Assembly: GCA_021847505.1 (NCBI GenBank)
Contig: JAJZEO010000132.1
Location: 815-64,814 of the forward strand
Direction: 5' to 3'
DNA from: a bacterium
GTDB taxonomy: Bacteria; Chlamydiota; Chlamydiia; Chlamydiales; 2-12-FULL-49-11
DNA: 64,000 nucleotides
Shown here: in pieces, positions 771 through 886 of the stretch
How positions within the stretch are numbered: position 1 is the stretch's first letter
How the letters are laid out: each line of letters opens with the position of its first letter
Notes under the pieces: model-generated
Seen by the model: the letters and a program-made list of their open reading frames with translations, nothing else
Database searches by the model: none
What the model was told of the DNA's origin: nothing
Program-made: the position numbers and the translations under genes

Positions 771-886
771 GCATGATCTTAAAATAGAACAGGATTTACA
801 AGATCAAGGACAGGATAAGCAGGATGACATGCGGTGACTTATCCTGTTTATCTTGCCTTTGAGATCCTCCGTATCCTGTTTTTCTT
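771..886. repeat. intergenic imperfect-palindrome repeat, copy A (ACAGGAT/CAAGAT word element)
   Basis: Aligns by eye over ~105-115 nt with 40080-40197. Shared blocks: catgatctt, aaaatagaacaggatt, acaagatca, catgcggtgac, atcctgt.tatcttg, gatcctcc.tatcctgttt. The left half is roughly the reverse complement of the right half, e.g. acaggataag / cttatcctgt. Confidence 0.8.

Follow-up and report, generated by a model that had tools for sequence, protein, structure and literature searches.

Does an imperfect palindrome that stands twice in the intergenic DNA of an uncultured member of the Chlamydiota regulate the genes beside it, act as an RNA of its own, or belong to a family of dispersed repeats? 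The preliminary description of this 64-kb stretch of DNA, which we call the window, had aligned positions 771-886 with 40080-40197 from end to end, with few substitutions and two short indels. It offered three readings: an operator or shared regulator of effector-like loci, a stand-alone sRNA, and a REP/MITE-like selfish repeat. The window is ordinary chlamydial chromosome with a G+C content of 42-46%. It encodes, among others, GlgC, an OPT transporter, a histidine kinase, an adenylate cyclase, EPSP synthase, ArgRS, PGK, an ATP/ADP translocase, PolA, CoaE, Rho, the CCA-adding enzyme and enolase. An identical copy of the Rho protein (37125-38678) is encoded on metagenome and MAG contigs (GCA_027365995.1, GCA_027452445.1), and relatives of this protein are annotated as Simkania, Rhabdochlamydiaceae or Chlamydiae. 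A metagenome contig (L009; L009 position minus 9012 gives the window coordinate) reaches 9 kb left of the window; 76 kb of the source genome were sampled in all.

Both MAFFT and pairwise alignment reproduced the end-to-end match of the two copies, A and B. They are 87.6% identical over ungapped columns (about 88%) in the pairwise alignment, with indels of 6 nt in the 5′ part and of 2-4 nt in the right arm. With the flanks included, mean column identity is 85% (MAFFT), and a repeat search of the window returned a 91-nt gapless direct repeat between A and B with 85% identity. The interval described before is real, and the conserved unit is longer, since it includes a hexamer head and a T/C-rich tail (Table 1). 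The distances given for the neighboring genes hold for both copies: copy A stands between the end of the glgC stop at 712 and the ATG at 989, and copy B between the end of the upstream stop at 40039 and the ATG at 40291. The loop core CATGCGGTGAC occurs in the window at these two sites only, where 0.35 occurrences are expected by chance. An nhmmer profile and an unfiltered covariance model run found no copies in the 64-kb window besides A and B, and the reverse-strand echoes of both copies in the model searches confirm their palindromic build. Same-species contigs from several samples carry A and B unchanged. One metagenome contig (L012) begins in the middle of copy A, and such breaks are expected of a repeat or hairpin.

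A third copy, C, was found left of the window in the spacer between a HEAT-repeat gene and glgC. It is an almost perfect hairpin of about 100 nt, and pairwise alignment gives it an identity of 89% with B and of 85% with A. The core that had been called invariant is identical in A and B, but copy C carries ATGCTGT instead, in a shorter loop between arms that are kept. Compared with A and B, copy C also lacks 12-14 nt at matching points of both arms (CAAGATCAAAGG or GATCAAGGACAG in the left arm, ATCATGATCCTC or CCTTTGAGATCCTC in the right arm), and thus the change in length preserves the pairing. Altogether, at least three full copies with pairwise identities of 85-89% are present in the 76 kb sampled from one genome. 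The unit is a non-coding imperfect palindrome of approximately 100-145 bp, in which a 5′ head of ATCNTR hexamers is followed by a long hairpin, with arms composed of CARGAT/ATCYTG words, and by a T/C-rich tail. The lengths of its indels are not divisible by three, and the copies have their stop codons in differing places; a coding remnant was ruled out, as reading frames are not conserved.

Table 1. Positions of the three copies and of short sequence features near them or related to them. Positions are those of the window except where L009 is named; MFE, minimum free energy structure.
Feature	Position	Strand	Sequence or remarks
Copy A, whole unit	765-889	+	alignment, repeat search, folding, covariance model
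Copy A, head	765-780	+	TCTTGAGCATGATCTT
Copy A, hairpin (MFE)	786-882	+	
Copy A, outer stem	788-795 with 873-880	+	AACAGGAT with ATCCTGTT
Copy A, loop core	828-838	+	CATGCGGTGAC
Copy A, tail	to 889	+	TTTTCTTTCT
Copy B, whole unit	40061-40205	+	alignment, repeat search, folding, covariance model
Copy B, head	40061-40096	+	six tandem ATCNTR hexamers
Copy B, hairpin (MFE)	40095-40204	+	
Copy B, outer stem	40103-40110 with 40187-40194	+	
Copy B, loop core	40143-40153	+	CATGCGGTGAC
Copy B, tail		+	T/C-rich
Copy C	L009 7925-8026	+	about 1 kb left of the window; nhmmer E 1e-27; covariance model 98.7 bits
Solo head	15977-15999	-	TCTTGATCATGATCTTAATCTT; 22/22 identical to copy B head; no palindrome attached
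15-mer	740-754	+	CGCATGAAAAATTTC; 10 nt upstream of copy A
15-mer	40219-40233	+	CGCATGAAATATTTC; 13 nt downstream of copy B
Promoter-like site	40240-40268	+	TTGAAA-17-GATAAT; between copy B and the CxxC gene, outside the element

Copies A and B fold into the long imperfect hairpins that had been proposed for them. As plus strand RNA, copy A reaches −43.4 kcal/mol (z −4.7) and copy B −38.8 kcal/mol (z −3.5), and in both cases none of 200 shuffled sequences folds as well; copy C reaches −33.7 kcal/mol with a z-score of −5.5 on either strand. Folded as DNA, copies A and B have z-scores of −3.5 and −4.2. Despite its G+C content of 40%, copy A ranks approximately 15th in raw stability among all 120-nt windows of both strands. 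The antisense strands fold with −34.5 kcal/mol (A), −40.8 kcal/mol (B) and −33.6 kcal/mol (C). A role at the RNA level is weakly supported, as the argument for it is position and the sense strand is not consistently favored by energy. Differences between A and B had also been said to preserve pairing. The example given mixes two registers, but in the common register one true double change (A-U to G-C) stands, beside one change from G-U to A-U and one broken pair (G-C to A-C). The covariation check thus yields one compensatory pair, from three sequences only and without statistical power. A hairpin that is held through symmetric indels and one compensatory pair while its loop is free to vary is the signature of a small palindromic repeat and not of an operator.

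The closest relative examined is GCA_964477345.1, with a Rho in the same 90% identity cluster and about 74-75% identity in coding DNA. Gene order is kept, running from secA to the HEAT-repeat gene, glgC and a 382-aa gene, and also through rho, a 444-aa gene, the CxxC gene and three DUF8085 genes. The element is absent from all three orthologous spacers, and the covariance model found no match in 41 kb of this genome. The spacers measure 159 nt between the HEAT-repeat gene and glgC (647 nt here), 41 nt between glgC and the 382-aa gene (276 nt here), and 59 nt between the 444-aa gene (447 aa here) and the CxxC gene (251 nt here). In three more distant relatives (L007, L008, and L045; Rho identity 76-79%), site B is empty as well, with spacers of 96, 49, and 80 nt, and the model detected no copy when run on about 150 kb of related chlamydial DNA. 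The relative has TTGAAA-18-GATACT before its element-free CxxC gene, which matches the promoter-like site found here, and upstream of the 382-aa gene the two genomes correspond in the bases close to the ribosome binding site. From both matches it follows that the extra DNA lies after the stop codon of the preceding gene and before the expression signals of the next one. Gain would be the simpler reading compared with loss, because four independent genomes are empty at site B, though the relative is distant (about 75% DNA identity). The unit ends share no direct repeat that would mark a target-site duplication, with a possible CTT...CTT around A and C only, and the relatives' spacers are too diverged to fix the exact insertion boundaries.

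The copies are insertions relative to the syntenic relatives; they differ in the loop and, symmetrically, in arm length, with the hairpin retained. We conclude that A, B, and C are probably lineage-specific inserted palindromic repeats of the MITE/ERIC/RPE kind in an uncultured member of the Chlamydiota. Of the three initial readings, the REP/MITE-like selfish repeat is the one best supported by the empty sites, the symmetric arm indels, the variable loop and the contig break. The repeat family is new; its kind is already known (MITE, ERIC/IRU, RPE, Correia), and the phylum is poorly studied.

All three copies are oriented like the upstream gene, on the plus strand, and the downstream gene is co-directional. 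Their heads start 90 nt (C, HEAT-repeat gene), 52 nt (A, glgC), and 21 nt (B, 447-aa gene) after a same-strand stop codon. Copy C lies 454 nt before the next start codon, and from the unit end to the next start codon there are 100 nt for A and 86 nt for B. Copy A separates glgC from a tandem pair of 382-aa genes, whose family has only two members in 5.8 billion clustered proteins. The label "kinase-like" that had been given to this pair was dropped, since the 382-aa proteins have no match in Pfam or among PDB sequences. Copy B lies between the conserved 447-aa gene, which always follows rho, and a 192-aa CxxC gene; past the CxxC gene there are three DUF8085 genes and a HECT-domain gene. The latter (42372-44399, minus strand) is missing at the syntenic position in L007, L008, and L172, where the DUF8085 genes abut a 150-aa gene, and is a lineage-specific gene gain. 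The regions 989-3287 and 3284-8224 of the window are tandem paralogue pairs: the two 382-aa genes give repeats at a spacing of 1150 nt, and two larger minus-strand units give repeats at a spacing of 1649 nt.

According to the first of the initial readings, the palindrome would be a shared operator, a multi-site array of CARGAT words bound by a transcription factor that co-controls accessory or effector loci. The arrangement of the left arm, with words of 6-7 nt approximately 9-13 nt apart and their mirror images in the right arm, would suit such an array. So would the similar distance of A and B from the next ATG (103 and 94 nt, measured from the ends of the interval first described) and downstream genes that are lineage-specific or of unknown function. 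However, the element is unconnected with any one gene class: copy C precedes glgC, at more than four hundred nucleotides, and copy A directly follows it, and the element is therefore not specific for effector loci. In the element-free relative the CxxC gene keeps its promoter-like site, and the single 382-aa homologue (49% identity) is found at the syntenic position 41 nt after glgC. The words themselves differ between copies (CAGGAT or CAAGAT), and the symmetric gain and loss of arm segments preserves pairing, not a linear array of motifs. In addition, the element lies upstream of the −35 region, beside the preceding stop codon. We consider an operator very unlikely. A Dam/GATC cluster was also considered and dropped on sequence grounds.

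The stability and significance of the hairpin (z −3.5 to −5.5) would also be expected of a stand-alone structured sRNA gene or of a sponge for a CsrA-type protein; copy A contains three CAGGAU motifs, and its CAGGAUG presumably resembles the CsrB repeat. Against an sRNA gene stand the searches for its signals and relatives: no promoter-like site common to the three copies was found, the element is missing from all relatives examined, and folding energy shows no consistent strand preference. Rfam returned only tRNA for the window at the gathering threshold, and an E-value search of L009 gave nothing at copy C. As to the sponge, most of the GGA motifs are AGA in copy B and all such motifs are located in stems, not in loops; it was dropped on these sequence grounds. 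Both forms of this explanation are most improbable.

We return to the inserted palindromic repeat and to what flanks its hairpin. The head is common to all three copies; TCTTGATCATGATCTTAATCTT is found in B and C, the head of A is 6 nt shorter, and that of B has six hexamers. It is followed by a constant junction, AAAATA(G/T)AACAGG. At the other end, the long stem with its A/U-rich base is followed by UUUUUCUUUCU, UUUCUCC, or UUUCCCUUUCU at the three copies, and a tail beginning TTTYYC is present after each of them. The head also occurs without the palindrome (Table 1). This solo head is located 14 nt past the stop codon of the adenylate/guanylate cyclase gene (16013-18550, minus strand), in a spacer on which genes converge. 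TTTC comes next, as it does in the tails of complete copies, and the solo head shows no significant folding. A looser variant of the head follows the secA stop codon (L009 486-507). In the relative, GATCTTAATCTA directly follows the stop codon of the HEAT-repeat gene at the empty site C (L174 8529-8540) and is the only head-like 12-mer in the 41 kb. It is a hint that, at site C, the head may predate the palindrome. The solo head could be a target site or a scar. The junction and the solo head with its TTTC would suit either a site-specific insertion of the palindrome beside a head or its loss from a full unit.

These observations would fit a palindrome that is a site-specific mobile hairpin, inserting directly 3′ of the head GATCTTAATCTT, which would mark the ends of transcription units in this lineage. 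Such an element would seek terminators, would be moved by a putative single-strand (HUH/Y1-type) enzyme, and would install new 3′-end structures between genes that were formerly co-transcribed. Every copy abuts a head, and both the solo head with TTTC and the head-like motif at the relative's empty site C are in line with it. We regard this more specific mechanism as quite unlikely.

A different origin of the same features has to be weighed, namely that the copies are ordinary terminators or insulators that have a local origin, with an inverted duplication of the head as one possible route, and spread by recombination or gene conversion without being mobile. Their position after stop codons, their sense orientation and the U/C-rich tail would be expected of terminators, and copy B repeats 15 nt of its own head in its right arm (ATCTTGATCATGATC). 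The head-like motif after the HEAT-gene stop at the empty site would be explained in the same way, and the window shows no enrichment of canonical terminators (17, 20, and 18 terminator-like sites were found compared with 21-23 in shuffles). However, an identity of 85-89% over 100-145 nt at unlinked spacers, 1.8 and 39 kb apart, requires that a defined unit was copied. The stem base is A/U-rich, a simple consensus scan for intrinsic terminators calls none at the three copies, and the solo head does not fold. Thus, a purely local origin is unlikely.

Two of the inserted palindromes have a 15-mer close by. This sequence, CGCATGAAAWATTTC, with a C run before it, has exactly two occurrences in the window, one close to copy A and the other close to copy B; the empty spacers of the relative lack it. 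It may belong to a larger inserted block or may be another small repeat in its own right.

The scanned ORFs of the window include no transposase, and apart from the palindrome itself no terminal inverted repeats were detected. The only insertion sequence in the sampled DNA belongs to the IS630 family and is located at L009 742-1874, approximately 8 kb left of the window; it encodes a 347-aa DDE_3 transposase and has the ends GTGAATGAAAAT... Homologues of this transposase (75-94% identity) are very common in chlamydial metagenome contigs, mostly in very short ones. The ends of this IS630 (GTGAATGAAAATTTTGAT) bear no relation to the element, and on that ground a MITE derived from it was rejected; the ends of the element match no autonomous IS in the sampled DNA. 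Other chlamydial contigs reached via IS630 transposase homologues (81% identity) contained no copy; they carry unrelated long palindromes after genes. The repeats could have spread by a transposase acting in trans or by hairpin- or recombination-mediated copying next to the head motif.

Outside the sampled genome, blastn against 72,556 plasmids and 50,697 phage records gave only weak matches, to the low-complexity head. No match to copy A was found by blastn (word size 11) in 5,426 complete E. coli genomes, and hence there is no homology to ERIC, IRU, REP, or similar repeats. The core pattern GATGNCATGCGGTGACNNATCC was run over 185,579 species genomes, with the source genome not among them, and gave one chance match in a coding region of a Dependentiae MAG. 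The left-arm pattern AAAATANAACAGGATTNNCAAG had 24 matches in metagenome contigs, nearly all by chance. One of the contigs, L016, was rejected as a family member: its model score was only 18 bits with an E-value of 0.5, and 19 of the shared bases were forced by the pattern. L016 1-200 (Ga0137465_1000959, 63% G+C) contains a nested palindrome of 10-nt words at the contig end, with GCAGATAMAC as the outer and ACAGGATT/AATCCTGT as the inner words; AAAATAGAACAGGATTAACAAGAT is common to L016 and copy B. Two arm-pattern scans of viral contigs gave no match. A search of these contigs for three ACAGGATNN words at 9-nt spacing returned at least 120 stretches. Several of them contain many matches at distances that are multiples of 9 nt and resemble unrelated tandem arrays; the pattern is a poor one. 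In full-text searches of the literature we found no description of such repeats in Chlamydia-like organisms or environmental Chlamydiota.

Proteobacteria, Neisseria, and Rickettsia have well-known small palindromic repeats, and the family shares features with several of these. ERIC/IRU elements are enterobacterial imperfect palindromes of approximately 127 bp. The chlamydial repeats resemble them in size, in being an imperfect palindrome over the whole length, in their intergenic and presumably transcribed sites near gene ends, in length variants that arise from internal indels and in having no transposase of their own. They differ from ERIC/IRU by the lack of sequence similarity, by the phylum, by arms made of hexamer-like words and by the 5′ hexamer head. 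The RPEs are likewise palindromes of 100-150 bp; their host is an obligate intracellular bacterium, in whose genome they have spread, with empty sites in relatives. However, they are often located in frame inside coding genes, whereas the copies here are all intergenic, and no sequence relation is expected. Correia elements and other MITEs, which can bear terminator, promoter, or RNase III-site activity when co-transcribed, are comparable as short non-coding, hairpin-forming repeats dispersed in spacers. Here, too, several dispersed copies (three in 76 kb) and presence or absence at orthologous sites are observed. In contrast to these elements, no TA or other clear target-site duplication was found for the family, and no discrete terminal inverted repeats that match an IS. 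The REP/BIME elements (RAYT, TnpA-REP) are similar in being extragenic palindromes after stop codons that are orientation-specific and can stabilize the upstream mRNA. One article (PMC3733652) describes REPs as palindromes of 20-40 nt with a 5′ GTAG or CGTC tag. The units described here differ in their length of 100-145 nt and have GTAG or CGTC at neither end, and no Y1 transposase was found in the sampled DNA. Integron attC sites consist of R″/R′ core sites (RYYYAAC ... GTTRRRY) and stand in a cassette array beside an integrase. They were rejected: the ends here are ATAGAAC ... GTTTTTC or GTTTCTC with the purines missing, no integrase is encoded nearby, and the flanking genes are syntenic housekeeping genes.

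The element would most likely be transcribed as the 3′ end of the upstream mRNA, as a 3′ stem-loop, because it is located just after a same-strand stop codon, in sense orientation and with a U/C-rich tract. There it might attenuate read-through or shield the upstream message from 3′ exonucleases. Both attenuation of read-through and protection of the upstream mRNA have been shown for REP, ERIC, and Correia elements. At site A, the downstream 382-aa pair may be read through the hairpin, like REP and ERIC elements inside operons, because the gap in the relative is only 41 nt and no promoter-like site was found after copy A.

A catalogued family would aid annotation; its hairpins break metagenome assemblies and inflate spacers, and its copies would be strain-level markers. 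The family may show how spacers between genes that were once adjacent gain new RNA 3′-end structures. It would not surprise a specialist, and no new regulatory system for effectors is revealed.

Palindromes unrelated to the family are present in the same DNA and in related contigs. At 51812-51984, 36-nt inverted repeats with CCYTGC/GCARGG words surround approximately 100 nt between the convergent enolase and ABC-transporter genes and form another palindromic spacer element. A related chlamydial contig (L042) has near-perfect palindromes of approximately 165 nt (8560-8720) and 100 nt (16700-16800) with unrelated sequence, the second directly after a gene stop. Long spacer hairpins seem to be common in this clade. 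Such unrelated long palindromes also crowd the same spacers as the family copies: the 647-nt spacer of copy C (L009 7829-8345) contains at least three other hairpins, at approximately 8055-8085, 8086-8160, and 8195-8320. The hairpin at 8086-8160 is G+C-rich with a T run, and the region L009 7829-8345 is bracketed by inverted copies of AAAACCCGGTTGGCTAC.
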